Positions 730 to 61,281 of a stretch of 64,000 bases of DNA are shown in pieces. Numbering within the stretch: position 1 is the stretch's first letter; each line of letters starts with the position of its first letter. A program made the translations under genes and the position numbers. A model generated the notes under the pieces. It saw nothing but the letters and a program-made list of their open reading frames with translations, had not been told where the DNA came from and ran no database searches. Source of the stretch: a phage; the sequence record OZ346222.1. The stretch is one strand, 5' to 3'.

Positions 730-2801
730 TGGCAACAGCTGTTTTTAAACCTTACCGTGATTACTCTACAATGGCTGCACAGTTTCATTACCGCACAGTT
801 CAGGATACTGCCGTTCCTGGTAGAGATTATGATCATGTTGAGGGCGATGTAACTATCCCAGTTGGGGCAACCAGTATTGAGATCCCAGTGGAAATTGTTG
901 ACAAATTACCCAACAGGTTGCCAAGAAGCTTCTTTATGGAGTTTTCATCAAAATCTCAAGGAGTGATGATTGGAACACAAAGGGCGAAATGTACAATAGT
1001 TTCAGATGAGAATCTTGACAGGATATCTTGGGATACTGTTGAGGAGAGAATGTTTCACCCAAGATATTGGGTTACAACCACTCAGCAGACTGAAAGTACC
1101 TGTATTGTTGCAGATAACAACTGTTGTATTAACCGTTTAGTGTCAAGAACATATGGAGGTATGGCTGGGTGCATTTGGGAAACAGTTGACAAGTATGACC
1201 ATTTCGGTATTGGGTTTGATGATCACTATGAGATGAGAAACACCAAGCTTTGGTTCAGAATGTCAATAACCAACGCCAGCAACTTCTCCACTCCTGAAAA
1301 GATGATTATGACTGTAGACCTTGTTGATGGCACAATCATCTATGTTCCTTTAGCTCAATATGCTGTCAGCATCTCAGAGGATAAAAATGTTGCAGAAATT
1401 CATATTGATTTTGAGGACTGCGTCGGGATGGACCAGAACAACAACATGATGGGTGTTGATCCTCGGCAGGTGAGAAGGATTTTAATACCACTTATGCCTA
1501 AAGACTGGGTAAGTAATAGCACAGATCCAAGAACGGAAAATGTAGAGTGTGAGTTGCGCCTAGATCTGCTTCAGCCAGACACAGGCTGGAAAATGATGCA
1601 ACTTAATAATATCCAGGTGAGAGAGCACGACGTTGGGATCTGCACCGCATATGACGATATGTGGAACGTGTCCCCTTTAAGGGTGTTGAACAATATCAAG
1701 CGTCTGGGCTATACCGGAACCATAAACCATTATGTTGGTATGAGTCATTATTATGACTACACATGGTCAGGAACCCAATGGTCTATAAACAGAACAGGAG
1801 CGCTAAACGCTGCAGCTTATAAATGGCATGATGATTTTATGTACAATGCCAAACGACATAACTTCGACGTTATGCAATCTGTAAGTTTTGAGCTTTTCAG
1901 CGATGCCTGCCCGTTGGAATGGACCCAAAGAGACTGGAACGATAACTACGCTAAAACAGGGTATACACCTTGTAGCTACCTCCTGTCTCCAACCATTGAA
2001 GAGGGTATGAATTTCCTTACTGCAGTATTTAAGAATTTTGCATCAGCCGCTATGAGAAACAACCTGCCAGTGATTATGCAGGTTGGTGAACCGTGGTGGT
2101 GGTACAATACCGATACTCGTAGACCTTGTATTTATGATTACCCTACAAAACAGGCGTTTTATGATGAGACAGGCGAGTATGCATTAGATATTGGGACTAT
2201 TGACGATCCTAAAACTGGCGGTGTTTACGATAAGTATGTAGCATTTTGTCGTGGTAAGCTTGGCGCTCGTATTGCGGCTATTTCAAAGGCAATAAAGGCA
2301 CACGCTGCATCAGCTCAGATGACAGCTCTGCTGTTTTTCCCAACCATTATGGAAACCGAGCTTACGCAAAAGCTTAACCTTGCTGACCAATATAAAAAGG
2401 AAGCAGGTGCTCTTGATTTCTTCTGCACCGAGTGCTACGATTGGGTGATGCAGGGAGGTATTGAAAAGGCAAAAGAGTCTGTAAACATACCTATCGTTAA
2501 GTTAGGTTGGCAACCGTCTGAAATACAATACCTTGCAGGGTTCGTTCCTAGTAAAGAGCTTGCTCCGGTATATGGTTACGACCCAACCAGGAATTACCAA
2601 GAATTTTTATGGAGATGTATTTGCGGAAACATGGCAACTATAGAGTATAGATATCCTGAGGTAAAACAGTATGTGTGGGCATACCCGCAAGTAATGTCTG
2701 ACAGCATCACTGTTACCGCTAGAGATTCTACCGTGCTTCATATGGGGCAGGTTGCTCTGAAAGGGTATGTAGAAGATGTTGTCCCGCCAGACTTCTCATA
2801 A
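729..2801 (+). CDS. hypothetical structural protein
   Basis: 690-aa ORF translationally coupled to upstream gene, immediately upstream of tail fiber genes; Trp/Tyr-rich, beta-rich composition. Confidence 0.5.
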   Translation: MATAVFKPYRDYSTMAAQFHYRTVQDTAVPGRDYDHVEGDVTIPVGATSIEIPVEIVDKLPNRLPRSFFMEFSSKSQGVMIGTQRAKCTIVSDENLDRISWDTVEERMFHPRYWVTTTQQTESTCIVADNNCCINRLVSRTYGGMAGCIWETVDKYDHFGIGFDDHYEMRNTKLWFRMSITNASNFSTPEKMIMTVDLVDGTIIYVPLAQYAVSISEDKNVAEIHIDFEDCVGMDQNNNMMGVDPRQVRRILIPLMPKDWVSNSTDPRTENVECELRLDLLQPDTGWKMMQLNNIQVREHDVGICTAYDDMWNVSPLRVLNNIKRLGYTGTINHYVGMSHYYDYTWSGTQWSINRTGALNAAAYKWHDDFMYNAKRHNFDVMQSVSFELFSDACPLEWTQRDWNDNYAKTGYTPCSYLLSPTIEEGMNFLTAVFKNFASAAMRNNLPVIMQVGEPWWWYNTDTRRPCIYDYPTKQAFYDETGEYALDIGTIDDPKTGGVYDKYVAFCRGKLGARIAAISKAIKAHAASAQMTALLFFPTIMETELTQKLNLADQYKKEAGALDFFCTECYDWVMQGGIEKAKESVNIPIVKLGWQPSEIQYLAGFVPSKELAPVYGYDPTRNYQEFLWRCICGNMATIEYRYPEVKQYVWAYPQVMSDSITVTARDSTVLHMGQVALKGYVEDVVPPDFS

Positions 2802-2813
2802 TCAGGAGATAAA

Positions 2814-3854
2814 ATGTCAAAACCTAGTTTTCCATTAGAGATTTGGGCAGAGGAGGATCAGGTTCTGCCTAACACCCACAGACAGAACAGGCTACGCCCG
2901 ATTGATGATTTGTGGAGAAAAGGTTGGGATCTTGGTCAAAAGCCCTCATGTGAAGAACTTAACTATATTTTCAATATGCTCGGGACTTGGGCAAAATACA
3001 TCGCTGACGAGCAGATCCCCGCTCAAGAAGGCCGTTATCTGGTACGTGATAATAACTTGAGTGATCTTTTGAACATTCCTGTTGCCCGTAGAAACCTTGG
3101 GATTATTACTAAGGAAGAGGCAGACGCCAGGTATGTAAAAGTTACAGGTGATACAATGACAGGCCCATTGGGTTTGCAACGTATCAACTTTAAAGCTGCC
3201 GAGTCAGATAAGGCTTGGATAGAGACAACTATTGGCCCAGATAAGACAACTCTCGACTTTGGGTTAAGTGATAATACCGGGTCGTTTGATGATGGTGGTA
3301 CATCTACAGTGGATGCGTTCCGTTGGAGATTCCAGCCAACTCAGCCGGATATTAATCCAGAGTTCACTTTGATGTACCTTAACGCGATCACGGCTAACCG
3401 TGCGCTGTTGAAAGTGGTAGGCAATGTTGAAGTTGTCGATAACATGAGGTGCAATAACCTTACTATCAGCAATACAGCGACATTCACCAACTGTAATGTG
3501 GCTAGTCAGTTGACGGCTGGGTCAGTGTATGTTAATGGTGGTGCAAGTTGTGACAGTATGGTTGTAAGAAGCCAGCACTGTGTTGTCGGTAACAGAAATG
3601 TGGTTCGCTCTGTGAACGGAGTGACGGCTAACGGTAACGGTGATGTAACGATCACTATCCCGCAGACAGGTGTGCAAGACATCAGAATCGGTGCAAGACT
3701 TGTGGACGGAGTTTCTGAATCTCCAATCCGCAACGGCTACGTTGTCACAGGCTGGCATTTCGGTGACAAAAAAGAGATGCGTGGTTCAACCTACTGGGCA
3801 GGACCTTTACAAAAACTTGTAAATGGTCAATGGATCACTGTTAATTATGCATAG
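2814..3854 (+). CDS. tail fiber protein (paralog A)
   Basis: 346 aa; GDTMTGPL tail-fibre motif, LNAITANRA, NRNVVRSVNG..NG.VTI repeats, C-terminus QKLVNGQWITVNYA shared with the 4866..5912 paralog; RBS AGGAGA upstream. Confidence 0.7.
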   Translation: MSKPSFPLEIWAEEDQVLPNTHRQNRLRPIDDLWRKGWDLGQKPSCEELNYIFNMLGTWAKYIADEQIPAQEGRYLVRDNNLSDLLNIPVARRNLGIITKEEADARYVKVTGDTMTGPLGLQRINFKAAESDKAWIETTIGPDKTTLDFGLSDNTGSFDDGGTSTVDAFRWRFQPTQPDINPEFTLMYLNAITANRALLKVVGNVEVVDNMRCNNLTISNTATFTNCNVASQLTAGSVYVNGGASCDSMVVRSQHCVVGNRNVVRSVNGVTANGNGDVTITIPQTGVQDIRIGARLVDGVSESPIRNGYVVTGWHFGDKKEMRGSTYWAGPLQKLVNGQWITVNYA

Positions 3855-3868
3855 ATCGGAGGACTAGC

Positions 3869-4453
3869 ATGAAAATACTTCAAGAGTTTAAACTTTACCA
3901 ACCGGGATCTGGCGAATACCGCACCAACAAGGAAACCAAGGAGCTGACCCCTCAAGAGGTTGAGGATTACACAGCATACACTGGGTATTTTTTACGTAAT
4001 GATGATGGCGATTGGTATGTGCAGTCACGAACATTACGACAAGAAAATCCGGGGTGTATCTTCCTACTTGTTGACGAGAAGGGAATTCTTAAGACATCTA
4101 CAGAAGAACCTGATGCCTTATGGCCTGCTCCAGGTCTTCGTGTGGTTATCGCCAAAAAAGAAGAGGTACCAGAAAACATTATGCTTCACCACGACGCTTT
4201 GCGTTTAGTTGGTGATGAATTTGTCACAGACAATGAATTCTTTGTTCAACAGGCAGAGGGTGTCATAGAGACAGAACTTGCTTGGGCTACTGCTAGAATT
4301 GGTGCCTATCAAGACATGATTGACCTTGAATATGATCTTACTGATGACCAGAAACGTAACATCAGAGATTTGAAAATGTACAGGGTAAAACTTCTTGAAA
4401 TAGATACATCTAAAGCCCCTGACATTTTCTTCCCGGAGCGACCTACCCTCTAA
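3869..4453 (+). CDS. hypothetical protein (tail-fiber-associated position)
   Basis: 194-aa ORF between the two fiber paralogs; acidic; RBS GGAGGA upstream. Confidence 0.45.
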   Translation: MKILQEFKLYQPGSGEYRTNKETKELTPQEVEDYTAYTGYFLRNDDGDWYVQSRTLRQENPGCIFLLVDEKGILKTSTEEPDALWPAPGLRVVIAKKEEVPENIMLHHDALRLVGDEFVTDNEFFVQQAEGVIETELAWATARIGAYQDMIDLEYDLTDDQKRNIRDLKMYRVKLLEIDTSKAPDIFFPERPTL

Positions 4454-4464
4454 GAGGAGGTGTT

Positions 4465-4779
4465 GTGGAGTTGGATTTGGCGGCATTGTACGGTATCTGC
4501 ATGGGTACCGTTGTCCCGATCTGTGTATGGGCTTTCAACCAGTGGCACACCAAATGGAAAGGCATTTCCAAGAGGTTGGATGAACTGGAGAAAGACCTCA
4601 TCTTAGTGAAAAACAGTATGGTTACAAAAGATAAACTTGATTCCGTTATCGAGACCCGGTTAAGTAAGCTAGAGGCCGATATTAACGACCTTAAGCAGGA
4701 TGTCAGGACAGATGTCTCCGGTATCCGAGCTGATGTACAAAAGATTTTGCACATGCTCGTAGAGCATAGTAAAAGGTAA
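4465..4779 (+). CDS. membrane-anchored coiled-coil protein (i-spanin-like topology)
   Basis: GTG start 4 nt after AAGAGGAGG; N-terminal hydrophobic segment (ALYGICMGTVVPICVWAF) followed by heptad-rich coiled coil; topology resembles Rz-type spanins but no homology was established. Confidence 0.35.
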   Translation: MELDLAALYGICMGTVVPICVWAFNQWHTKWKGISKRLDELEKDLILVKNSMVTKDKLDSVIETRLSKLEADINDLKQDVRTDVSGIRADVQKILHMLVEHSKR

Positions 4780-4865
4780 ACAAAGGTCAGAACGGAAAGG
4801 ACTCTGTTCTTGCATTTTGTTCCCTAAAGTGTTAAAATAGTCCTAAGGAATTTTCTCAGGAGAAC

Positions 4866-5912
4866 GTGATGACTAAACCAGTTATCCCTCTTGATATTTG
4901 GGCCAATCAGGATGTTGTGCTTGAAAATACGGGAGAGTTGAATAAGTCTCAACCAAAAAAAGAAGAGAGATTGAAAGGTTGGGATATGACACAAAGAGTG
5001 GCATGTGAAGTTGTTAACTTTGAACTTCACATGCTTTCTGCGTGGTTGAAGCATTTAACAGAAGATGTTGTCCCAGGATGGGATAATAGATTCTTAAGGG
5101 TCACTAATAATCTAGCAGACGTTCCAGACAAAGCTGCTGCACGTCAAGTTCTCAATGTATACTCACCTGAAGAAATGGACGATCTATATGTTGACAAGTC
5201 TGGAGACATAATGACTCAGACTCAAACTTTAGGTCTTCAAAGAATCGAGTTTGCATCTGCGTCAACAGACAGTGCGGCAATATATACCACCATAACTCCA
5301 GACAAGACGACGATGGATTTCTGGATTATGGACAACATCGGTGGTGCTGACGGCACAGACCTTGATGATCCTTCTCACCAAATAGATGGGTTCCGTTGGA
5401 GATTTCAACCTTCTGGTGGGCAGCCTGTGTTTTCAGCTATGAAGCTCAATGCTATAACTGCCAACCGTGCAAGACTGGCTATCCAAGGAAATCTTGAATG
5501 CAACGATGCAAAAAGTTCCTCTGCAAATGCCAATGCGGTCACGATACCAAGAGCCACTGTTAATGGACAACAATCCTGCGGAAGCGCTCAAATAGGTGGA
5601 AGAGTTGATTGTAACGATGAAACCGTCAGGGGCCAATATGCAACAGTTGGTGGAAGAAACGTGGTCCGCAGGGTAAATGGTAACGGCGCAGACAGTAGTG
5701 GTAACCTTACTATTCCTATGCCTAGCAGAGGGGTTGATGATGTAAGGATAGCAAACCGTTTCAAAACCACCTACAGAGAGTCAAGAGTCTACCCTGGACA
5801 TGTGATGTGCTCTGGTAACTACGCTTATAAACACCCTTATCAAGGTGATTACTGGACAGGTGCTATCCAAAAACTTGTAAATGGTCAATGGATCACTATA
5901 TCTTATGCTTAA
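4866..5912 (+). CDS. tail fiber protein (paralog B)
   Basis: 348 aa; same architecture as 2814..3854 (DGFRWRFQP, LNAITANRA, GRNVVRRVNGNG, C-terminal QKLVNGQWITISYA) with a divergent central region. Confidence 0.7.
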   Translation: MMTKPVIPLDIWANQDVVLENTGELNKSQPKKEERLKGWDMTQRVACEVVNFELHMLSAWLKHLTEDVVPGWDNRFLRVTNNLADVPDKAAARQVLNVYSPEEMDDLYVDKSGDIMTQTQTLGLQRIEFASASTDSAAIYTTITPDKTTMDFWIMDNIGGADGTDLDDPSHQIDGFRWRFQPSGGQPVFSAMKLNAITANRARLAIQGNLECNDAKSSSANANAVTIPRATVNGQQSCGSAQIGGRVDCNDETVRGQYATVGGRNVVRRVNGNGADSSGNLTIPMPSRGVDDVRIANRFKTTYRESRVYPGHVMCSGNYAYKHPYQGDYWTGAIQKLVNGQWITISYA

Positions 5913-5923
5913 AAAGAGGGTAA

Positions 5924-6190
5924 ATGAAACTAACTCAGTTTTTATGGGGACTGGTTGCGGCATCTGATGACCCTACGAAAGTATCCCAAACTAAGCTATG
6001 GTCGAACATAGGCATGGCGGTGATGACTGGGGTGTTTATTCATATGGGGTATAATGATACGCTTCCTGAATGGTATGCGTGGATATACGCGCCTTCAGTA
6101 GCTTGCCCCCAGCTTATTAGCAAATTCATCTCGCTCCGGTGGGGTTGCCAGCACCCTGACCACGTTAAAAACGAAGAGCAAAAAGCTTAA
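5924..6190 (+). CDS. small membrane protein (holin-like?)
   Basis: 88 aa with 2-3 hydrophobic segments and a charged C-terminus (KNEEQKA); location next to fiber genes; function inferred from topology only. Confidence 0.3.
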   Translation: MKLTQFLWGLVAASDDPTKVSQTKLWSNIGMAVMTGVFIHMGYNDTLPEWYAWIYAPSVACPQLISKFISLRWGCQHPDHVKNEEQKA

Positions 6191-6199
6191 GGAGAAATC

Positions 6200-7945
6200 A
6201 TGGCGCAAGACATGACAAGCTTTGAGCAGGCGGTAGATCAAGTAATTGTTGATTCTGAACGTTTGCACCTGATTGTCAACGGTAACGCTGTGGATGAAGT
6301 TGTCGTAGAGGATGGGACCACCATCCCTACGGTACGAAAAGCCATGCTTGACACCCTTTATTTTAAAACGCCACCGATCCCTTGGGCGTATGGTGCATCC
6401 ACAACAGTTTTTAACCAGCTGTACGAGTTTAAAGGGGACACAGGCCCTCAGTGGTGGTACGCTCCCGCAGCATCAAAATCTAACCCGGTTAGAATGCCAG
6501 CAGATCCTTCACAATCTCCAAACTGGAGATTATATACCGATTCTGCAGTAATGGCAAAATACTACGCAAAACTTAACAGTCCGAGGTTCGAAGGTGACCC
6601 GCGAGTACCTACGCCTCCAATGGACGACAAATCCGAGTCTATAGCAAACACAGAGTTTGTTGTTGACTATGTGGATAGCATATTTGAAGCCATGGAGGGA
6701 ATGAAAGTTACTGTAGGGTCTTTGGTGGTAAAAGGTCTTACAGAACTTGCTAACACTATAGTTGGTGGCACACTCACCTTACATGGGCCTGTTAATGGAG
6801 CAGATTCTACTGCACGCTTCAGGAACCTAATCCTCACGGCAAATACTTCTACACTTACTTTTGCGTGGAGTGATCCTAAGCATGCAGACTGGAGAAGCAC
6901 AGAGCTGCAACCTCATGAAGTGTCCACCCACAGGGTTATAGCTGACACTATAACTTCTGGGAAACCAGTGGCTAATAATAACGATGTGCATTTTGATGGT
7001 CTAGGTAATAACTTTTTTGACTACGTGTACATTCGTGGTAATGCCATGAAGGCAGCAACCGAACCGACATTGCAGGTAGATGGAACCACCAGGGTTAAGA
7101 ACCTTGAGGTGACAGGCACTGTTACAGGGATAACATACTCTGTCGATGGCACCATGATCTACCCTAGCTATATTGAAAGCACGGGTGATGCATTGATAAA
7201 TGGCGATTTGGAGGTTGGCGGGTCTGTAGTTATTCGAGGTACAGCCTCTATCCAAAATATAGCTCTGAATACTCTAAGAGTCAATGAGCGTGCAACTTTT
7301 GAAGGAGAAGGGCTTACAGCCAATAAAGGTACAATTACCGAGCTGACCACCACCACTTTAACTGCAACAACTGCAAACTCTGAAAACTGCAACATTACCA
7401 GAAACTTGCAGGTAAATGGAGATGTTAGTTTAAACGCCGCAGGGACTGGCACCACCTACCTTCACAATCTTGAAATATCCGGCACAGTGACCGGATGGCT
7501 GCCAGACTTCTCTAATGTCAACTTTGTCTGTAATGGCATTAACTCCAGTGGTAAGATAACCACCTCTCAAGAAATTGAGGCTGGTAAAACCATCACTGCC
7601 CCTACTTTCCACGCAGGAAAGGTAGATTTTGACTTAGAGGAGGTTGACGCGTCCAGTGGGACATGGACACCTAACGGGCAGGCCAGTATGTATGTTGTCC
7701 ACGCTAAAGGGGATTTTACAATAGGTCAGTGGCCTGGGACATCAGCGGAAGATAAACCTTATCCATTCACTGCAGTTATCTATGTCATTCAGGATGCTGT
7801 AGGTCACAACGTGACTTTGCACGATAAGTATGCTATCCTGTCGGCAACACCTGTTATTAACAACAGGGCTAACAGTGTTACCTTGCTGCAATTAACGTAT
7901 TGTGGTGTTGGTGATATTGTAGACGTAGTAATTGCACAACGTTAA
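6200..7945 (+). CDS. tail fiber / tailspike-like protein
   Basis: 581 aa; repeated G-T/S-rich beta-strand motifs (VTGTVTG, GDLEVGGSVVIRG, NLQVNGDVSLNAAGTG) typical of fibrous or beta-helical receptor-binding proteins; followed by hairpin terminator. Confidence 0.55.
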   Translation: MAQDMTSFEQAVDQVIVDSERLHLIVNGNAVDEVVVEDGTTIPTVRKAMLDTLYFKTPPIPWAYGASTTVFNQLYEFKGDTGPQWWYAPAASKSNPVRMPADPSQSPNWRLYTDSAVMAKYYAKLNSPRFEGDPRVPTPPMDDKSESIANTEFVVDYVDSIFEAMEGMKVTVGSLVVKGLTELANTIVGGTLTLHGPVNGADSTARFRNLILTANTSTLTFAWSDPKHADWRSTELQPHEVSTHRVIADTITSGKPVANNNDVHFDGLGNNFFDYVYIRGNAMKAATEPTLQVDGTTRVKNLEVTGTVTGITYSVDGTMIYPSYIESTGDALINGDLEVGGSVVIRGTASIQNIALNTLRVNERATFEGEGLTANKGTITELTTTTLTATTANSENCNITRNLQVNGDVSLNAAGTGTTYLHNLEISGTVTGWLPDFSNVNFVCNGINSSGKITTSQEIEAGKTITAPTFHAGKVDFDLEEVDASSGTWTPNGQASMYVVHAKGDFTIGQWPGTSAEDKPYPFTAVIYVIQDAVGHNVTLHDKYAILSATPVINNRANSVTLLQLTYCGVGDIVDVVIAQR

Positions 7946-7949
7946 TATA

Positions 7950-7982
7950 TCTAACCGCTCCTGACGGGGCGGTTTTCTTATC
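7950..7982 (+). terminator. rho-independent terminator
   Basis: CCGCTCC-TGAC-GGGGCGG hairpin (one G.U pair) followed by TTTTCTTAT directly after the 6200..7945 stop. Confidence 0.5.
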
Positions 7983-7993
7983 TGGAGAACACA

Positions 7994-10900
7994 ATGCTTC
8001 CAATCCCTTTGCTAAAACTTGGTCGTCATTTCCTCGATAAGAGGGGTGGAATTAAGGAACTTGCTGTTCTGTCATACCCAATAGACAACAGTGATGGTAC
8101 AAGCAACACAGTATCCTATGTAAATAGCTTGGCTATACTTTTTGATGATGGTCAGCTTAATATTACGGGCTATAACAAGTTCGGGGAGTGTCGCACTGGG
8201 GATCGTAACCCTATAAACTACCCAAGCGAAACAGCCTGGAATGTTGATCATGTGTGGAGAGCAGACCGTGCGTTTGTGATCCGGACTTTTGATAACCAGT
8301 TTTTCTACATCGGCTGCACTGCAGGTCTTATCGGATCCACTGCGGCAGGCGGTAATGATGTTTGCGTAAACGAGTGGACACCTCTTCCGGAACAGATTGT
8401 TAAAGGGTTGCACCTTGACACCCACCCAGAGCGCCTTATTGAGGTGATGGGTGGTATTAACAACACTGTCTGGGTTATTGCAGAGGCAGAAGGCACTGGC
8501 ATACTTAAACTATATGGATCTGGTAACAACACCTACGGATCTTTGCATGTAGATAAAAATCAGCATGCAACCCCTGTAAAGATTGGTGAGACATCGGAAA
8601 ATCCGGAAACAGGTCCTTGGAAAAACCCAAGCATCAACTGCGAGGTGCATGACAACTCTGTTATTTTCGGTGGTCCTAGAGGCTTCTGGATTGCTGGATA
8701 CGACTTTCTAAGAAATAACAGTAGAAACGACCTTGTTTGGCCTCCTGTGCAGATTACTCGTAACGATTTGAGGGGCATTCCTGCAGATGAAGAGTGGAAA
8801 GGGTTTATGTGCGGTCCTAACGGGGCAATAATTGCCACACAGAGGATGCACAAACCAAATGACCAGCAGCTTGTTAACGTATTCTACGGGCAAGACGTTT
8901 GGGGAGATGACACGTGGCGTTCCTTAAATATCACCTACACCCATGAGGTGATAATGGCTCGTGGATACGGCACAAGTGGCATTTTCTTCAATAATGGCAC
9001 TAAACAGTATCGTGGATTCTCTCGCAACTTGTGTAATGATATTGGTGCACAATCTGCAAACAATAGCCCTAGGGCTAATTTTATCCACTATCAGGCTCTT
9101 GCTACAGCTAAATATGTTGAGCAACGCCTGCCAGTTAGCTGGACAGAGAGTGTTTATTTCCAAGGCATCCACAGGGAAGGTTTCTTAGGAACCTTTACTG
9201 TTGTTAATGGCAAACTTTGGTGGTCAGGCATCCCAAGGGGGAGTTTTGCAGGATCTAACAACCTCTTTGGCGGCAGACTTAACAGCCAAGGGTTCACAGA
9301 GATTCCGGAGAATTGGTATAAAAATGTCCCGGTAGATAGCTGGGGTATCGAAGACATCTTTGATGTCAATGGTGTGAGCAATGTTAGCAACATTTACATC
9401 GGAGATACTGTCAAGATGAAATTGAAACCTCAGCCGGAGGGTGCTACGTTCATTATTGACAAGATTGAGTTGGTAAATGCTGCAGGCACTGTTGTTACAG
9501 ATGCAAACTATCAGTTCTCCACTAACTGGAACCATGGTGGTGCTAACGAAGTTGTGGTCACCCAGTATAACCGTAACATCAACAGACGTGGTTTGTATTC
9601 TATCAAGATCACCTACCATGACAAGCATGGCACTGGAAGAACCTATACGACAAGAACTTTGAACTGGAACACTATAGTTCCTGCGTATCCGTCCAACGGC
9701 AAGTGGCATACCGTTGGTAGAAACAAGCAGTTCCATGTTAACGATACTGTATACTTTGGGCTGAATGGGACCCAGCCTGCAGTAGAAGGGGATACATCGT
9801 ATATGGTCAGACTCCACAGAATGGATGCTGGATCAGTCACTTATGATGTGACCCAAGAGATCTACGATCAAAGACGTGCCACGTATGACAATATTGTAAA
9901 AACACAAGCCTTGTGGGAGTTCAATCCTAATGGCAAGGGTGGTAAAATGTTGCAGGTTAATGAGCAGAACGGAACGTCGTTGACTGTTCACGAACACCCA
10001 GACCCTTGGCCTGATCCTGGAAAACCTCGCCCGGGAGCTCGTACACTGAAAATTGTCAGCCATGATGCAGGATATTTCGGAATACGCTGGGAAGCTACAG
10101 TAAGATATGTCGACGGGACAACAAACAACATAGGGATTACACTTGGCGGCACTAGTGAAGATAACTCGCTGAAAATTGCCTACACGCCCAGAGGTATCTC
10201 TATTGATAGTATGGATGTTGTTCGCAATGGCTACGGCGATGTGAATGTCAAAGTTACTCTTGGCGAACATCTTGGTGGGGAAAGGATCATCATGTATACC
10301 TTTGATCATGATCCACGCACCAATGGAACTTATGCAAATCAGGCATGGAGTTACCTGATAAATGCACCTGAGCCGAATACTAAAGAGTTCTACTATGGTA
10401 TGAAGCGAGATGTGTGCAAGAAAACAGGAACACATGACTGGATTGCTATCTGCGTTAAAGATGAGCGCACAGCTTGGGATGAGCCTGTTAACAGATGGTT
10501 CATAGGTATTCCTACCAGAAGTGATAAGTATGTCGCAGAATATATTGTATGCATGGGCGGTACCAACCTAAACATGTGTTGGAACGAAGATGTAAACAAA
10601 TACTCTGATTATGACTATATGAGGGATTACTCTTGTAATTTGTGGTTTAACCAAACTACAGGTTACCCTCCAAGACAGGCGAGAGTAAACCCTGCAATCT
10701 TCACAGACACGCAGGTTTTCTTGACAAAACAGGCCAACGAGGTTCAGACCTTCAAGAATAAATACGCTCCTAACAAGTGGTTCTACAACTGTTACGGCGC
10801 ATTTTTCTGGGGACCTGGTGAGTTACCTGGTGGGGGATCTTGCTTGAATGAGGCAACTTACGCAAGTGACTACATCATGGGGCAGGTCAAGAAGTATAAG

Positions 10901-36053: not shown

Positions 36054-38483
36054 ATGAGTATGTGGTCTTTCGATTTTGAGTCATCCGGTTTGCTGGAAGA
36101 CCCAGATCTTTATTATCACTGCGGTCTGTTTAAAGAGCTGAATAAGAACCGTTTTATGCTGTTCCTTCCTCTAAATGACCGCACACACTACTCCGAGGAG
36201 GATATAGAAAAGGCTAAGAACTTCATTCTGTCAAAGAAAACTCTTTATAAAGATTTTGAAGTTCGCATAGCAGATTTTTCGGAGTTGGAAGGTTGGCTTA
36301 CAGGCAATTCTGACTGGTCACCAACAGCTTTGAACTGCCATAACTGCTACAGTTATGACTTTATGCTAATGGAAAGATTATCCGGTATTCATTTTGATAT
36401 GTTCCGTGATCCTAAATGCATGGGGACTATCAACGACCACCAGGTTAACCTGTTTGATACGTTGGCTATGAGCCGAATCTTGTGGCCTGATCGCCCTTTA
36501 CCAAAAGGTTGTCCGGACGCTGTATTCAACCCGGTTACTAAGAAAATGCAACCTGTTGGTCCTCACGGCCTTATGGCATGGGGCTACGCCCTTGGTAACC
36601 AGAAAGTTCAAATTGATGACTGGCGCGATCTTCCGTTGTGGAAGTATGTGGATCGTGTATTCGAGGACGTTATCATCCAGGAGCTGCTCTGGAAAGAGCT
36701 GGTAGCGGAATCAAAAGGTGTATTCTACGGCAAATCTGACATGCAGAACTTTATGTACGATCCAGCCAAAGAGAAGCCGAAAGGGTTCAAGAAGATCACC
36801 TGGAAGAACGCATTACGTCGAGGCATGCTGCAGCACTTCCTGATGGAGCTGCAGGCCCGTCAGGGTGTATACTTCGACATAGATGGAGCTATTGCTTTAC
36901 GTGACCGTTGCGATGCGTGGATGAAAGAAATCGCTGATCGTGTTGAACCACAACTACCTTTAAAAGAGCTGTCAATGTCTCAGCGGCCCAAGTTCCCTGA
37001 AAAGCCGTTTAACCAAGACGGGACAATCTCTAATAATGGTTGGAAATGGTTAAAAGATAAGCTTGGCTATCCTGTAGACATGAGTGCTTTAGAGTTCAAA
37101 GCCCCGCCTAAGCGAGCATTTACCTCTACAGGAGATGTCAGCAAGATGGGGATAAAATGGTGTGAAGAGATGGGCTGCAAAGACCCCGATAAGATGGCTG
37201 ATTTCTTGAGAGGCTATATTAAGGGCACCTCCACACCACAACCCTTACCTAAAGAGCTGATGGATCAGGCAATAAGTGATCTGCAGCAGAAGCGAATGCC
37301 TGACTGCAAGATACCTATGAAAATCAGCAATCAGGACGACATCAAGCGATACCTAATCAGTGCTGGTTGGCTCCCAACAATGTGGAGAACTAAAGATGTA
37401 ACTAAAGACAGCAAGAAGAAAGCTTTACCTGATGCAGATGTTGATGCACGAGTATATGCATATATGGACGAGCTTTTGGAGTCAGAGTATTGTGACCTAA
37501 TTATCAACTTCTGGAACAAAACTGATGCTAAGTTCCAGACAACCGTGCACAAGTTCCGAAGCTTTCCTAACTCCGAAAGGATTAAAAAGGAAGTATTCGG
37601 GAAAATACGTAGAAAAGCCAGGGCACTTATTACTTCTCCGCAACTGAAAGATACGTTTGGACACCTATGCCCAAATCTTGAAAAATTGAACGGAGAGATG
37701 GCTAAAGATATCGTCTTGTGGTTATCATTGCGAAACCGCAGATCGGTCCTTGATCCAATCAAGGAGGATAAGGTTGATACTGGTCTTCTTAATCACCCAC
37801 GTTTGAAGATTGACCATAAGCTTCCTGCTAAAAGCTCTGGATTAACAAACACTTCCAGACAGAAACACAGTATTTGTGCAAACATGCCTAAACCATCTCC
37901 TAAAGTGGTTATGGGTAAAGAGATGCGTAGTCTGTGGGGTGTTCCTCCGGGATACTTTGAGATCGGTATTGACGGGTCCAACTTAGAGCAGCTTATCGGG
38001 GCTTGGGGTGCCTTTGAGTTCGACAACGGCCTGTATTATGATGTTGTAAGTAACGGAGACGCACACCAAAACAATGCTGAGGCATATACAAAAGTGGCAG
38101 GCAGAGAGGTGTCCCGTAACGACGGTAAACCTATCACGTATGGGGTTATGTACGGGGCACAAAAAGATAAAGTTGCAGATATGTTGGACATCTCCCCAGA
38201 GTTGGGACAAAGGGTAATCGATGCACTCTGGGATGCCAACCCAGGTCTTAAGGGGCGCAAAGAGGATCTGGAGAAATTCTGGGAAGCAACAGGTAAGAAG
38301 TTTATCTACTCTTTTGATGGTCATGCTATCTGGACCCGATCTAAACACTCTTTACTTAATGCATACCAACAAAATGGCGGTGCATCGTTGTGTGACTTAG
38401 TTGGAATACTCATGCACCACCAGATGGTGAAGCGTGGGTGGTACGATGAAGGTGTTCGTCGTATTATTTATTACCATAAATAA
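36054..38483 (+). CDS. DNA polymerase, family A: exon 1 (3'-5' exonuclease + polymerase through motif B)
   Basis: 809-aa ORF; Exo I-like FDFESSG at N-terminus; motif A-like IGIDGSNLEQL; motif B-like KPITYGVMYGAQ; ORF terminates ...RRIIYYH-K-stop exactly where motif C (HDE) is expected. Confidence 0.7.
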   Translation: MSMWSFDFESSGLLEDPDLYYHCGLFKELNKNRFMLFLPLNDRTHYSEEDIEKAKNFILSKKTLYKDFEVRIADFSELEGWLTGNSDWSPTALNCHNCYSYDFMLMERLSGIHFDMFRDPKCMGTINDHQVNLFDTLAMSRILWPDRPLPKGCPDAVFNPVTKKMQPVGPHGLMAWGYALGNQKVQIDDWRDLPLWKYVDRVFEDVIIQELLWKELVAESKGVFYGKSDMQNFMYDPAKEKPKGFKKITWKNALRRGMLQHFLMELQARQGVYFDIDGAIALRDRCDAWMKEIADRVEPQLPLKELSMSQRPKFPEKPFNQDGTISNNGWKWLKDKLGYPVDMSALEFKAPPKRAFTSTGDVSKMGIKWCEEMGCKDPDKMADFLRGYIKGTSTPQPLPKELMDQAISDLQQKRMPDCKIPMKISNQDDIKRYLISAGWLPTMWRTKDVTKDSKKKALPDADVDARVYAYMDELLESEYCDLIINFWNKTDAKFQTTVHKFRSFPNSERIKKEVFGKIRRKARALITSPQLKDTFGHLCPNLEKLNGEMAKDIVLWLSLRNRRSVLDPIKEDKVDTGLLNHPRLKIDHKLPAKSSGLTNTSRQKHSICANMPKPSPKVVMGKEMRSLWGVPPGYFEIGIDGSNLEQLIGAWGAFEFDNGLYYDVVSNGDAHQNNAEAYTKVAGREVSRNDGKPITYGVMYGAQKDKVADMLDISPELGQRVIDALWDANPGLKGRKEDLEKFWEATGKKFIYSFDGHAIWTRSKHSLLNAYQQNGGASLCDLVGILMHHQMVKRGWYDEGVRRIIYYHK

Positions 38484-38753
38484 CATTGTGGCTTCATAGA
38501 GTAATCTATGTCGAATAACCTCTTTAACTGCGGGAAGCCTAAACCTTATGGCAAGGTAATCCGCAACGAAGCGCTCAAAAGAGCGAACGCTCAGAGGCCA
38601 TTCCGAAAGGAAGTAGACCAGCAAGTGCGGTCGAAATGGGAGGATTCCTGTGGTTGCTTATCATAGGAATATGAGATGGTCCGATCCTACGTGAAAACGT
38701 ATGGCTATGCACGTAATGGTGCGGGGTAGCTTAACGACCTACCTGAACTATTG
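38478..38753 (+). other. putative group I intron (about 276 nt, no ORF) interrupting the DNA polymerase gene at motif C
   Basis: Exon 1 ends in U (CAU His codon); intervening sequence ends in G; downstream frame resumes with GAT GAG (DE) to complete HDE; intron-internal GUGG about 10 nt in can pair with exon-terminal CCAU (P1 with U.G at splice site); boundaries +/- 2 nt. Confidence 0.5.
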
Positions 38754-47042: not shown

Positions 47043-47355
47043 TACTTGAAAATCCCTGGCATATCAAGTGTAAGGAGGATTTCTAAAATGGATTTCCTCC
47101 TTTTGATATTTCACCGGGCCAGATATTTTAAAATTCTTAGAAAATCAGAAAATGGATCGAAAACTAAAATGGATTTTTCAAGACAGGCACGATAAGATGT
47201 GCTGCTCATTCTATCGTTCGCACCGTACTTTAAGTCACTATTCCAGATTTTTCCGCACATACTCTCACCCTTCTACCAGAACTTTCCCAGCTTACCTCTG
47301 ACCTTTTATAACAATAAGTCCATTATTATCAGAAAGTTTCGGCACATCTCTTTCG

Positions 47356-47550
47356 GTACTCGATCTGTTTTTCATTTCAAAGACCTGATTTTCTGAAAAT
47401 TTTTCTCGATAAATTTCTTAGTACTCGATCTGTTTTTCATTTCAAAGACCTGATTTTCTGAAAATTTTTCTCGATAAATTTCTTAGTACTCGATCTGTTT
47501 TTCGTTTTCTGAATCGGATTTTCTGGAAATCGTTCCAGCTCTCGACCTGA
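47356..47550. repeat. tandem direct repeat, 65-bp unit, about 3 copies (third degenerate)
   Basis: Unit GTACTCGATCTGTTTTTCATTTCAAAGACCTGATTTTCTGAAAATTTTTCTCGATAAATTTCTTA starts at about 47356, 47421 and 47486 in an ORF-poor AT-rich region; AAATGGAT and GATTTTCTG sub-motifs recur on both sides. Confidence 0.7.
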
Positions 47551-47744
47551 AATTTTTGGGGACGAAATCGATTTTTCGTTTTCAGAAATGGATTTTTAAA
47601 ATTTCTATATGGGAATATTTTATGGGATACTGTTTTATAGGAAATTGTTACGGAGGGTAATTAGCATGCTAATTAAATTTATTAAATGCGAGGAGTTCTC
47701 ATTTAGAATTTTGAATGATAATCATTCTCGTTTGCAGAATAACG

Positions 47745-49121: not shown

Positions 49122-49526
49122 ATGAATAAGAACGTACGCCGCATCATGAACGAACTGGCAAACGATGAAAAAATTATTGACATGCATTTGATCAACATTT
49201 GCCGCCGTTGTGTAACATACAACAACCGCGCCGCAAAAGCGCGTGAGATGAACGCAAAAGGCACCTTAAAGCCATTCCAGGTGGTGGTAAAGGCCATTAA
49301 AGATGTAACTAATACGGCAAACCAGGTACAGGGGAACACCAACGAGAGTACCAATATTGATCCGGCTTACATCATGAAACGGATCCGGACCTGCAAGAAC
49401 AAAGAGCAAGTGTATAATGTCATAGACTGGTTGGATTCTATGGGCGATGTGGTGTACAATAGATTCTCGGCAGCTATTGAGATCCAGCTTGACAGGTTAG
49501 ACGGTAAAGTACTTAAAACTTACTAA
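49122..49526 (+). CDS. hypothetical protein
   Basis: 134 aa; promoter TTGACA...TAAACT, leader hairpin GGCGGGAA-TGT-TTCCCGCC, CA-rich spacer, RBS. Confidence 0.55.
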   Translation: MNKNVRRIMNELANDEKIIDMHLINICRRCVTYNNRAAKAREMNAKGTLKPFQVVVKAIKDVTNTANQVQGNTNESTNIDPAYIMKRIRTCKNKEQVYNVIDWLDSMGDVVYNRFSAAIEIQLDRLDGKVLKTY

Positions 49527-49537
49527 ATTTATTTTTA

Positions 49538-49561
49538 GATGGCCTTGACTCCAGGGCCATC
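49538..49561. promoter_or_regulatory. dyad-symmetric element GATGGCC-N10-GGCCATC with TTGACT in the spacer (copy 1 of 3)
   Basis: Part of a roughly 44-nt block TTATTTTTAGATGGCCTTGACTCCAGGGCCATCAATAAAGTAAA repeated at about 50159 and 53897, each directly after a gene stop. Confidence 0.5.
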
Positions 49562-49726
49562 AATAAAGTAAATTAATCTCAGCTAAGCGAAAAAGGGGGC
49601 TTTAAGATGAGCACTACACGCCAATACACAAAGGTAACTATTATCGCCTGCGTTGTCGGTTACATCCTGGCGCAAATGTTAATGAGTAGCGCTAACAGTT
49701 TTGCAAAATTTTTCTTAAATTTTTAA

Positions 49727-49805: not shown

Positions 49806-50147
49806 ATGACTACTATGGCCGCCGCAGAAAAAGCTATTCAGATCGCCGCACTGAAAAAACAGATCGCAGACCTTGAGAACAAGATCGATAACTTTGAAAT
49901 CGACGAGGACAAGTACGACGAAAACTATGATGAATGGTTAGACGAGATCTACGGCGAAATTATGATCGGAAACATTTCTTTTCTTCCGTCGCGTATCCTC
50001 AAGGAGCTAGATCCTATCGCTTACCGCTGCGGATTTAGCGACTACATCGACAGCCTGGATATTGAGGACGATGAAGAATACCAGGAATTACAGACAGAGT
50101 TAGAAGAAGCAAAAGAAGAGCTTGCAGAACTGGAAGAAAACGAGTAA
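49806..50147 (+). CDS. highly acidic coiled-coil protein
   Basis: 113 aa, strongly Asp/Glu-rich; RBS AAAGGAGAAA. Confidence 0.55.
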   Translation: MTTMAAAEKAIQIAALKKQIADLENKIDNFEIDEDKYDENYDEWLDEIYGEIMIGNISFLPSRILKELDPIAYRCGFSDYIDSLDIEDDEEYQELQTELEEAKEELAELEENE

Positions 50148-50158
50148 GATTATTTTTA

Positions 50159-50182
50159 GATGGCCTTGACTCCAGGGCCATC
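50159..50182. promoter_or_regulatory. dyad-symmetric element GATGGCC-N10-GGCCATC (copy 2 of 3)
   Basis: Identical to copy 1 including flanks. Confidence 0.5.
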
Positions 50183-50236
50183 AATAAAGTAAACTTTATA
50201 CTGTTAACACTGAACTAATGCATAGGAGTTAAAACC

Positions 50237-50482
50237 ATGGCAGCACTAATCACCAAATATTATGCCCCTACCAACACCAAAAGCGCCCGTATCATGGTAA
50301 AAGGCTTCGGACGTAAAAAGGTGTACACCTGGGATTATGCCTTAGACACGGAAGACAACTACACCAACGCGATGACCGATTTTATTAATGATCTGAACAC
50401 GCGGATCTTGACAAATTATAAAATTACCGATATTGCCTATATAGGGGAAGGCGGGATCTGTTTTGTCGGTATCGTCAAATAA
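50237..50482 (+). CDS. small hypothetical protein
   Basis: 81 aa; RBS TAGGAG. Confidence 0.5.
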   Translation: MAALITKYYAPTNTKSARIMVKGFGRKKVYTWDYALDTEDNYTNAMTDFINDLNTRILTNYKITDIAYIGEGGICFVGIVK

Positions 50483-50557
50483 GCTGTTTTTTCGGTGGTC
50501 CTGGTAGCAGGGCCATCTATAAAGATAGTTTATCAATACAATGAAAGGAGAAAGTAC

Positions 50558-53683: not shown

Positions 53684-53884
53684 ATGAGCAACAATATCCG
53701 CGTTATTAACTTCAAAAAAGAAGAAAAAATTGCCGTGCTGATTGACGGTCAAGAAATCTTCAAGGGCGACTATGAAGATCATCAAACGGCGATTAGTATC
53801 ACTCGCGTGATTGGTTATCATAATTTCTACCCCCAAGGCGCTGAGGCAGCAGTTAAACGAATCAAAGAGATTGTAGGCCTGTAA
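53684..53884 (+). CDS. small hypothetical protein
   Basis: 66 aa; promoter TTGCAA-17-ATAATA, hairpin GGGGA-GCTAA-TCCCC, CA-rich spacer ACCACCACAAAAACC, RBS AAAGGAGAAA. Confidence 0.55.
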   Translation: MSNNIRVINFKKEEKIAVLIDGQEIFKGDYEDHQTAISITRVIGYHNFYPQGAEAAVKRIKEIVGL

Positions 53885-53896
53885 AATTTATTTTTA

Positions 53897-53920
53897 GATG
53901 GCCTTGACTTCAGGGCCATC
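53897..53920. promoter_or_regulatory. dyad-symmetric element GATGGCC-N10-GGCCATC (copy 3 of 3)
   Basis: Two substitutions relative to copies 1-2 (TTGACTTCAG, CGATAAAG); directly after the 53684..53884 stop. Confidence 0.5.
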
Positions 53921-53977
53921 GATAAAGTAAATTTAAACCCTGTTAAAATACCACGCAGTTAACAAGGAGTGATAGAC

Positions 53978-58860: not shown

Positions 58861-59299
58861 TCTGCTCTTCCCCCTACCATAAACGGCCCTACCTGGCAAG
58901 TGGAATAATTGACGAGCCATCAATCCCACACACTGTACAAATATACATGTAAAATAACTATTGCATAACCTTTCATTGTGTGGTAGCGGTGCTATTTTTT
59001 ACCTGTTTTCCTTCCAAAATTGCACGTAATGCAGCTATTGCACAAAATTTAACCTGATGCACATCTCCAATATCCTGTCAACAACTAAAAATCTTTATAA
59101 GTCATACACTTACACAGCATCGAAAGCGTGTTCTACGCGAAAAATCGAGTATAACTATAGCCGCCAGATCTCAGAATTCACGTACGCACGCCATTCTATA
59201 GCCTGCAAAGTATTTATTCCAACCACAGAATAACGGAATAGTCAATACCTGAATAAAATAATTATTCGTTTAAACTGCATAACATAAATCAGCTCAGGT

Positions 59300-60830
59300 G
59301 TCAACATTTTTCGTAAACAGTCTGAAATTGTCACTGTGAGTTATCATAAACAGAGAAATCTTTAGTCGTATAATGTTTACTGTACGTTACTATACTGACT
59401 GGAATCATTAGATGACTAATAGAAAGATAAGAAATAATTAACAATACAATTATTTTACCTGTAACAATAAGACAACTATGCAAACGAATGGCATGGCGCG
59501 ACGGAGTCGCGACATAATATAAAAGCAGTAACCATCACCCCCGTGATGGTTTGTCTGCAATCTATTAATCAGATCATAGTTGCCTTGTATTCAGTTAATC
59601 ATGACATAATAAGCAAGGCAACTATAGATCTGCTAATAGTTGCCCTGCTTTTATATTATGTCATATATTATTAACTTGTTAATTGTTAACTTGCTAATTG
59701 TTTTCATGCAAACGAATGTCATGGCTTATCCTATCTGTGTAAACAGTTAAGGTGTAAACTATCCAGGCGTAAACAGTCTATGCGGGAACAATCTATACGT
59801 GAACAGTGAAACATGAAATAATAACAGTCGTTATTGTGTCGAAAGTGTATAAGGTGTCAGACAAGTTTTTCTCCTCTTTGTCAAGTGCTGCATGAAAAAT
59901 TTACAAGCTTGTATGGTAGCATTTTTGCGGCCCTGTTTACATTCAGCGATGTATGTATAATCCTTGTTGTGTGGGCGTTTAGACGTCTAGACGGTCAGAA
60001 GTCTGCAGGTTAATACCTAATCTATCGGCTGCTAACTATATCCCACACAAATAGTAAGAAATATAATTGTTATGTGCGTAAACAGTAACTCATGTTATCA
60101 ATCCCTGTATGTATCGCCAGTGGTGCGCATAATGGGTATTATGTTAAATTGCCCGTAATGATAACTATTCTCACAATGATAGGTATTCTCATTCACTCCC
60201 ACAAGATAGGTTGCAAATGTTGTGCCACTGTGTGAACGGCCTAACCTATTAATTTGCCTCACTGCCTCGATATTTGAGAATTGTTATAAGAATGAGAAGT
60301 ATTCCCATTTCGTCCGCCTGGCAGCACTCCAGTCGCTACCGCTCATGACAGGGCAGAACTAGACCCTCTTCAGATATTTCTGGCTGACTCTTCAGGTCTG
60401 TGTGGGAAAAGCCAACCTCTCCGGCGGCGGGGAGGGGGTCAATTAAAAAAAATTACGTGGTGCATGAAGCGCTCTTCAGGTAAGGCATGTGTTATGGGAT
60501 GAAACCCTCTTCAGGCAATGATATTTGTGGGTGTGATATTTGCTGGAAAGCCAGATATGACGGGACTCCTGGCGGGGCAGGGGTAGTACAGACAGGGAAA
60601 ATATGGGGGATGTAGTTGGGGAAATTGATCAGACAGGTAGAGTATGGAATATGTTACAAGTATGTTAAATAGGGAGGATGAATATCTGCAGGATTTGTGT
60701 GTAAAATCAAAGACTTAAGTGGTGTTGTGGTATTTTCTATAAATAATTCAAGTTTAATAGGTAATATTTGTCTCTATCCACTTTGTGTGGTAAACAGATT
60801 CAGATGAAATTGGTTTACAAGTGTATACAT
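59300..60830. repeat. iteron-like dispersed repeats (GTAAACAG family) and palindromes in an ORF-free region
   Basis: At least 7 copies of (G)TAAACAG in both orientations, five within about 90 bp near 59.74-59.83 kb; 12-bp inverted repeat ATAGTTGCCTTG/CAAGGCAACTAT near 59.58-59.62 kb; TGCAAACGAATG(G/T)CATGGC twice. Confidence 0.55.
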
Positions 60831-61281
60831 AATATACAAATTAAAGATACAAGAAACCCCCCTCCCCCTTCGGCTACCATTCACCTTTTCCTCTGACTGG
60901 TACTTAAACACTTATTCAGACTCTTCAGGTTATCACCCATATATCATATGGCAGTGACTGGTGTCCTCCGGCCCCTCTTTCGTCACCCGTCCGCTTCGCC
61001 ATGCTAATGCCATAGCCAATGGTTCGGTTGTTCACTCTGTTCACTCAGGTGTATCTCCATACCCCTTCAAACCGAAGAGAACAGAAAACCCGAATTACTC
61101 GGTAAAAGAAAAGAGAAGAACTTAATTTTATCAGGATAGGCAAGAATGTCAAGGCATGACTGCTCACTAAACAAGCAAACAGTCATGTGTGGAAGGTAAG
61201 TGATTGTGGTGGTGGGAAATTTAGTTGAAAGATGTGTTATAGGTGCGCTTCCAGCACTTTGGCCGGGCAGCTAATTGTGTG

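Follow-up and report, generated by a model that had tools for sequence, protein, structure and literature searches.

Two paralogous short tail fibre genes with one chaperone, and gene conversion between their 3' ends, in an rV5-like phage

In Escherichia coli phage rV5, Kropinski et al. 2013 (PMC3606486) singled out the proteins gp30 and gp33 as a pair sharing 42.3% identity. A subsequent study by Maffei et al. 2021 (PMC8594841) described two paralogous short tail fibres together with a chaperone in the BASEL Vequintavirus phages, and traced this fibre and chaperone by homology to a single locus of the phi92-like phages and ultimately to GpS and GpU of phage Mu. Because these two papers report the pair, its recovery from the DNA analysed here is the rediscovery of a published feature, i.e., one described since 2013 for a well-studied genus; the pair is ordinary and nothing in it is new in itself. 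What is possibly new, and minor, is that the two genes evolve in concert at their 3' ends and that a sister clade exists in which both fibres carry the same tip, neither of which is mentioned in the consulted parts of Kropinski 2013 or Maffei 2021. The DNA in question is a stretch of 64,000 nucleotides (nt) of phage sequence (record OZ346222.1), hereafter called the window, and its two fibre genes are referred to as A (the gp33 ortholog) and B (the gp30 ortholog).

In phage Mu, two fibre ends (S/S') alternate through inversion of the G segment. The Mu GpS/GpU system (5YVQ) resembles the present locus in that the C-terminal ~60 residues of the fibres are homologous and in that a Caudo_TAP chaperone gene lies directly downstream of the fibre gene, here of A only. 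In contrast to Mu S/U and S'/U', the present locus has two complete, co-oriented fibre genes without meaningful inverted repeats and one chaperone for two fibres, and its N-terminal baseplate domain is of the phiTE/phi92 type. A further comparison can be made with T4 gp12, whose chaperone is gp57A, whereas the chaperone here is a Caudo_TAP protein. The likeness to Mu GpS also concerns the type of fibre, which according to BASEL (PMC8594841) is one that binds the lipopolysaccharide (LPS) core, and the role proposed for T4 gp12 is the same, namely secondary, irreversible binding of the LPS core from the baseplate (PMC8594841, PMC3606486). Kropinski et al. (PMC3606486) reported an HHpred match to 1PDI (T4 gp12). 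However, this match was not reproduced in our PDB searches, in which no T4 gp12 chain appeared at E <= 1 with single sequences or at E <= 0.01 with a profile.

The short tail fibre of Pectobacterium phage phiTE (9CUY/9MJN) is homologous to A and B in its N-terminal ~100 residues, which serve as a wedge-docking joint; in the electron cryomicroscopy model, residues 3-92 of the fibre form this joint and are attached to wedge protein 1. Unlike A and B, the phiTE fibre has 554 amino acids (aa), a long coiled coil and immunoglobulin-like distal domains, is proposed to bind flagella, and is present in a single copy. Fibre III of phi92 (gp147) and its counterpart in Justusliebigvirus (PaulScherrer bas60_0032) occupy the same locus position and are followed by a chaperone and a small protein. 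The Justusliebigvirus fibre, also single copy, has a tip 60% identical to that of A and is barely similar outside the tip. A trimer model of phi92 gp147 fits the downward fibre III under the wedge protein gp145, and this fibre is proposed to mediate stable adsorption. From rV5 (gp33/gp32/gp31/gp30) and from the BASEL Vequintavirus pairs, the present locus shows no substantive difference: the genes are orthologous, with 98-99% nt identity and the same lengths and order.

The fibre pair and its chaperone

A megablast search with positions 2000-8000 of the window matched 118 phage records, the best of which was Escherichia phage RudolfGeigy (BASEL Bas52, genus Vequintavirus), to which 100% of the query aligned at 99.1% identity; records derived from rV5 reached up to 98.5%. 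The window is therefore a genome segment of a Vequintavirus, i.e., of an rV5-like E. coli myophage. Over the whole 3.1-kb locus, identity to rV5 (NC_011041) is 98.4% and the gene order is identical, running gp34, fibre, chaperone, 104-aa protein, fibre, 88-aa protein, gp28; in the annotation of the 99%-identical relative, this locus sits within the baseplate and tail-fibre gene cluster. In rV5 numbering, the genes are gp33 (A), gp32 (the chaperone), gp31, gp30 (B) and gp29, the first four encoding 346, 194, 104 and 347 aa. Some 16-21 unannotated GenBank records of the MG0656xx series (e.g., MG065635, MG065654 and MG065666), deposited as 'Campylobacter phage' with Campylobacter jejuni as the host, share 98-99% identity with the rV5-like phages of E. 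coli across the fibre locus, and their host label looks doubtful.

The two fibre proteins align over their full length with 152/356 identities (43%, E = 5e-94, BLASTP), and a single family, PHROG 4465 'tail fiber protein', covers both from end to end. With only 2 and 3 non-synonymous changes relative to rV5, A and B are the orthologs of gp33 and gp30 and true paralogs of each other, which is in agreement with the published rV5-like phages and with an earlier interpretation of the letters alone (the sequence-only reading), in which two paralogous tail fibres had been recognised. The motifs quoted in that reading (GDxMT, FRWRFQP, LNAITANRA and RNVVRxVNG) and the shared ending QKLVNGQWIT(V/I)(N/S)YA were all found in both proteins. 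Its description of conserved termini around a divergent centre is too simple: conservation is patchy, and the tip that precedes the terminus is among the most divergent parts. Measured over 20 alignment columns at a time, the better conserved stretches of A and B, at 55-65% identity, are residues 1-20, about 110-150, 185-205, 250-275 and the last 14, and the less conserved ones, at 20-35%, are residues about 50-100, 205-250 and 293-332; over the distal ~40 residues before the conserved last 14, the two proteins are 29% identical. The QK(L/x)(V/I)NGxW motif is kept in homologs that are only 36-40% identical overall, and the C-terminal motif is also present in Mu GpS (PVQKNINGTWYNV) and in the phiTE short tail fibre (PIQKKVNGVWVTI); the QKLVNGxW ending is a signature of the whole family, not a peculiarity of the A/B pair.

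The start of B, previously set at GTG 4866 (348 aa), needs revision. ATG 4869 is favoured, since an AGGAG lies 6 nt upstream of this ATG and only 3 nt from the GTG. All GenBank relatives use the ATG, which is almost certainly the true start and gives a protein of 347 aa.

The domain assignments come from matches to solved structures. Residues 1-108 of A match residues 1-111 of chain c of the phiTE short tail fibre (9CUY) with E = 1.4e-19, residues 2-84 of B match the same fibre with E = 1.2e-9, and the N-terminus of a family profile built from 23 sequences matches it with E = 7e-37. At the other end, residues 286-343 of A match Mu GpS (5YVQ) with E = 2e-6, and profile positions 279-348 match GpS residues 438-503 with E = 2.7e-12; B alone gave no direct PDB match to Mu GpS, and its tip is covered only via the family profile. 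By these matches, A and B each keep an N-terminal domain homologous to the wedge-docking joint of phiTE and a C-terminal module of the Mu GpS type; the two proteins are short, baseplate-docked, Mu GpS-like fibres, not long fibres. In the B clade, the N-terminal PIDDLW is replaced by PKKEER, PEKDLR or PAKEQQ, and D32 and L33 are at least 90% conserved in the family. Structure prediction of the distal domains had been proposed as a check in the sequence-only reading. An AlphaFold2 monomer of A, calculated from the 23-sequence alignment, has a mean predicted local distance difference test (pLDDT) of 60.6 and a predicted template modelling score of 0.33, too poor for domain-level conclusions, yet a Foldseek search of the PDB with this model gave a single significant match, namely 5yvq_A, 'Complex of Mu phage tail fiber and its chaperone' (E = 1.6e-6). 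As the TM-score is 0.17, we take this match as no more than supporting evidence.

Of the two genes between the fibres, the first had been listed as unknown. It is the tail fibre assembly chaperone gp32: its product scores 45.8 bits against Caudo_TAP (PF02413; cut-off 22.1 bits, E = 8.5e-12) and matches PHROG 136 with E = 2.4e-36. This is the sole such gene in the cluster, and it lies directly downstream of A, not of B, which is followed instead by the gene for an 88-aa membrane protein that is not a chaperone. The view of the locus as a duplicated receptor-binding cassette is accordingly too broad; the fibre gene is duplicated, but not the whole cassette, as a single chaperone follows copy A. 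The second gene had been correctly recognised from its transmembrane segment and coiled coil, with one of each in a conserved 104-aa protein.

Exchange of the tips and origin of the second copy

Where A and B have the same residue, only 37% of the codons are identical, which means that synonymous sites between the two genes are saturated. Nevertheless, the ten consecutive codons for QKLVNGQWIT are all identical in the two genes, giving an exact match of 30 nt (Table 1) with 0 matches in 100 shuffles. When codon identity was permuted among the identical-residue positions, a run of at least 10 identical codons arose in 5 of 100,000 permutations (p = 5e-5). A divergent lineage assembled from SRA data (L008), whose A and B are 87% and 78% identical to those of the window and whose gene order is the same, has nine identical codons at the same place (p = 2.5e-4) in another nucleotide sequence, with CTG, GTC and CAG in place of CTT, GTA and CAA in both of its paralogs. 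Such parallel synonymous change at three codons in both copies is a signature of gene conversion and speaks against a fixed nucleotide-level element. By itself, a four-taxon site-pattern test between the window and this lineage yielded only three clustered 'lineage' sites, with 23 such sites as background over the gene; more weight rests on the codon-run permutation and on the sister clade described next.

An uncultured sister clade, more divergent than L008, was found in four independent samples, namely L011 (ENA ERZ15185469), L019 (Logan SRR24653873, a 135-kb contig), L020 (ENA ERZ28596771) and L021 (Logan SRR32732957). Its gene order is that of the window, its A and B share 73% and 45% identity with their window counterparts, and the closest deposited phage genome matches it at less than 60%. 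Within the clade, A and B are 42-44% identical at residues 1-292, whereas from residue 293 to the end they are 89-94% identical as protein and 74-86% as DNA, and in L020 as many as 20 consecutive codons show 100% nt identity between the two genes. The shared tip is of the A type. The breakpoint lies just past the conserved GVxDxR motif, at the start of the Mu GpS-like module, and a tree of the tips joins A and B of L011 with 99% bootstrap support, which is incongruent with the B clade recovered at 94% for residues 1-290. The alignment of paralogs and relatives that had been suggested as a search for mosaic breakpoints thus located one, and the contrast between tip and remainder recurs in all four samples. 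The clade also has a longer gp29 homolog (117-126 aa) and a chaperone of 204-208 aa.

Taken as a whole, these comparisons show that the 3' ends of the fibre genes undergo gene conversion, with a tract of ~30 nt in the window lineage and of the whole tip in the sister clade. Beyond the genus, the tip of A is 55-63% identical to the fibre tips of Justusliebigvirus and Rosemountvirus, the rest of those fibres being unrelated or barely related, and the best match of the tip of B outside the genus is 43-45% (Salmonella phage SSE121). This module of ~55 residues moves between phage groups. Single-copy members of the family also shuffle tips; for instance, P0011 goes with Av-05 for residues 1-290 and with P0025 and P0029 for the tip.

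Related genera of the subfamily have a single short tail fibre. In both Avunavirus Av-05 and Seunavirus GAP31, gp34 is followed by the fibre and its chaperone, then by three membrane proteins (one of 104 aa with a transmembrane segment, a polytopic one of 157 aa and one of 88 aa) and finally by gp28. The flanking genes are all homologous to those of the window, the 157-aa gene has no homolog there, and the Vequintavirus paralog B occupies the slot of this 157-aa gene. In the phi92-like PaulScherrer, the order is fibre, chaperone, 113-aa protein, lateral fibre. Neighbour-joining trees of residues 1-290 support the A clade at 100% bootstrap and the B clade, which is on the longer branch, at 94%. 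However, support for A and B as sister clades is only 47%, and B may have arisen by duplication in situ or have been acquired from a relative.

Readings of the two copies

We consider it probable that gp33 and gp30 form two homotrimeric sets of short fibres, served by one chaperone and carrying two tip specificities, with 3' ends exchanged by gene conversion. In such an arrangement, each paralog would make its own homotrimeric short fibre, with the first ~90 residues anchored in the baseplate wedge, and the last ~55 residues would be a receptor-binding tip that contacts the LPS core. The single chaperone would fold both tips by recognising the shared, family-conserved C-terminal strand QKLVNGQWIT. 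With tips that are 29% identical, a virion of the window lineage most likely has fibre tips of two specificities, directed at variants of the LPS core, which is also the hypothesis of Kropinski et al. (PMC3606486). The genetics of LL12 and of the BASEL phages show that the LPS core is needed up to the first outer-core glucose, LL12 needing Glc I.

Several points weigh against this arrangement. The literature assigns no receptor to either paralog separately, and BASEL (PMC8594841), in which all Vequintavirinae depend on the same LPS-core sugars, argues that one secondary receptor may serve all of them and notes no considerable allelic variation of the paralogs. The sister clade keeps both paralogs although its tips are of the same type, so two receptor specificities cannot be the general reason for having two copies. 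The trimer state and the chaperone contacts are predicted from homology, with a poor monomer model, and a sequence comparison of the chaperone with solved structures gave only spurious matches. Finally, gp30, gp32 and gp33 are not among the 19 proteins in the mass spectrometry (MS) supplement on rV5, though the main text of that paper names them (PMC3606486, Additional file 5).

Ranked second, after two tip specificities on separate homotrimeric sets and not mutually exclusive with them, is a positional non-equivalence of two fibres that use the same receptor, a proposal that we hold only tentatively. Both paralogs would then bind the same LPS-core epitope and be kept for different docking sites or geometries on the baseplate (e.g., 6 + 6 fibres, or an inner and an outer set), and the divergence of the tips in the window lineage would be secondary. 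This agrees with the sister clade (L011, L019, L020 and L021), where nearly identical tips sit on proteins that have diverged over residues 1-292, with the replacement of the family-conserved N-terminal PIDDLW in the B clade, and with the common need of all Vequintavirinae for the same core sugars (BASEL), including the requirement of LL12 for Glc I. However, the tips of the window lineage are strongly diverged and each is under purifying selection; moreover, close relatives in other phage groups exist for the tip of A but not for that of B, which suggests two functional tip types. In addition, two docking sites are seen in no structure, phi92 and phiTE each having one set of short tail fibres. 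It is conceivable, though we would not favour it, that the docking site or geometry is encoded in the divergent N-terminus and shaft and that the tips are a shared exchangeable module that gene conversion has repeatedly homogenised or replaced and that has to fit one chaperone.

It is unlikely that A and B co-assemble as heterotrimers (A2B or AB2) with the shared blocks and the C-terminal strand as a trimerisation register. The conserved blocks are indeed in register over the full length of two proteins of nearly equal size, which are served by one chaperone and whose genes are homogenised at the 3' end. Yet single-copy homologs, which are necessarily homotrimers, conserve these blocks too, the fibres of Mu (GpS), phiTE and phi92 are described as trimers of one protein, and heterotypic packing would be needed in the tip as well as in the divergent shaft (20-30% identity at residues 205-250).

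More improbable still is that one copy, most likely B, is non-structural or a decaying duplicate left out of virions. Three observations could be read in this way, namely the long branch of B, the weak terminator-like hairpin ahead of it, and the lack of both paralogs in the rV5 MS table (PMC3606486), which lists gp61, 60, 64, 53, 52, 133, 79, 152, 82, 34, 237, 41, 62, 235, 106, 37, 1, 27 and 228; six predicted tryptic peptides of A and B were likewise not found in this supplement. However, many certain structural proteins are also missing from the table, which makes absence from it uninformative. The hairpin has an 8-pair stem with 3 GC pairs followed by a T-rich tail and lies in the only sizeable intergenic gap (4780-4868), before B, and the annotation of phage Gotham places a predicted promoter in the corresponding gap; neither prediction counts as evidence. 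In a comparison against five Vequintavirus genomes, A has a ratio of non-synonymous to synonymous divergence (dN/dS) of 0.02-0.04 and B one of 0.04-0.07, where dS reaches 0.32 overall and 0.29 for B, and the ratio is similarly low for the chaperone and the two small membrane proteins (at most 0.04 for gp31). B is intact in all genomes inspected and is kept in two further divergent lineages, and both fibre genes have strong ribosome-binding (Shine-Dalgarno) sites. A and B are thus both intact and under strong purifying selection, which excludes a pseudogene. The sequence-only reading had named a copy that is unexpressed or absent from virions as the finding that would speak against it; selection and ribosome-binding sites point to two functional genes, and on the side of the virion the rV5 table lists neither fibre. 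Another paper that mentions rV5-like phages and mass spectrometry reports proteomics only for an unrelated siphophage, and recent large receptor-screen and BASEL-2 preprints hold nothing specific to the two paralogs.

We give practically no credence to a switching or diversifying system, whether a diversity-generating retroelement or a Mu/P1-type invertible segment alternating fibre ends: the C-terminal module is homologous to Mu S/S', but here two full-length, co-oriented genes are accompanied only by imperfect inverted repeats of 14-18 nt, and the 99%-identical relative has neither a reverse transcriptase nor an invertase annotated over the 64 kb that match. No template/variable repeat was found in the 64-kb window, where the sole 3'-end repeat is the A/B pair itself (62 nt), with mismatches that are not adenine-specific; the earlier judgement that this is not a diversity-generating retroelement is therefore upheld. 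An RNA-element explanation was rejected alongside these two systems.

Neighbouring features and significance

The coordinates of the fibre locus are collected in Table 1.

Table 1. Genes and sequence features of the fibre locus, in window coordinates
Feature	Position	Strand	Evidence
Short tail fibre paralog A (rV5 gp33 ortholog, 346 aa)	2814..3854	+	PHROG 4465, E = 2e-171; bas52_0034 'short tail fiber protein', rv5_gp033
Tail fibre assembly chaperone (rV5 gp32 ortholog, 194 aa)	3869..4453	+	PF02413, PHROG 136; relative's annotation 'tail fiber chaperone'
104-aa protein with N-terminal transmembrane segment and coiled coil (rV5 gp31 ortholog)	4465..4779	+	PHROG 5345, no function assigned
Weak terminator-like hairpin in gap 4780-4868	4789..4810	+	pattern match only
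Short tail fibre paralog B (rV5 gp30 ortholog, 347 aa)	4869..5912	+	PHROG 4465, E = 4.8e-166; bas52_0037 / rv5_gp030
88-aa membrane protein (rV5 gp29 ortholog), after B	5924..6190	+	PHROG 1322 'membrane protein'
Distal tip module of A, residues ~291-346, putative Mu GpS-like receptor-binding end	3684..3851	+	family profile vs. Mu GpS; sister-clade breakpoint
Distal tip module of B, distinct tip type	5745..5909	+	29% identical to tip of A apart from last 14 residues
30-nt block, codons for QKLVNGQWIT (in A)	3810..3839	+	exact match to 5868-5897
Second copy of 30-nt block (in B)	5868..5897	+	exact match to 3810-3839

Small membrane proteins are kept inside the tail-fibre cluster across the genera of the Vequintavirinae (104 aa and 88 aa, with a 157-aa protein in Av-05 and GAP31 only); besides the two window genes of Table 1, the loci are 6138-7201 in L014 and 6150-7219 in L016. 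The 104-aa protein, listed for rV5 as gp31, 'membrane protein, 1 TMD', in Table S3 of PMC3606486, keeps its place after the chaperone in Av-05 and GAP31 with 32-33% identity. The 88-aa protein (gp29) shares 52-53% identity with Av05_00104 and GAP31_230, which lie at the corresponding position, and has no relationship to gp31.

Elsewhere in the window, a group I catalytic intron (Rfam RF00028, 64.7 bits, E = 4e-14) at 38468-38703 (+) splits the DNA polymerase gene, whose open reading frame (ORF) 36054-38483 continues to ~39107; the 99%-identical relative annotates this coding sequence as joined from two pieces. The early-gene region holds an intergenic, T-rich tandem array at 47346-47596 with ~65-nt units, two perfect and further degenerate copies. 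A 50-nt element occurs in four dispersed copies that are 68-96% identical (49525-49574, 50146-50195, 50481-50530 and 53884-53933), each with a GC-rich hairpin (GGCCTTGACTCCAGGGCC) flanked by A/T runs; these elements resemble intergenic terminator or promoter modules that recur between small early genes. Around 58900-61000, at a switch of the coding strand, ~2 kb lack an ORF above 70 aa and have the lowest G+C content of the window (0.386), and the relative has no annotated coding sequence there. ARAGORN found no tRNA anywhere in the window.

As to what the pair may mean for these phages, the tip (residues ~291-346) is predicted to be a swappable specificity module, and the N-terminus and shaft are predicted to carry a second, non-redundant function. 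Tip exchange would be useful, but incremental, for host-range engineering in a therapeutically popular genus with a broad host range. The concerted 3' ends and the sister clade with the same tip offer a concrete handle on the division of labour between the two fibres. If the non-equivalence of docking positions is true, the rV5-like phages would be natural two-fibre-set baseplates, in which the tips are the same or different depending on the lineage.

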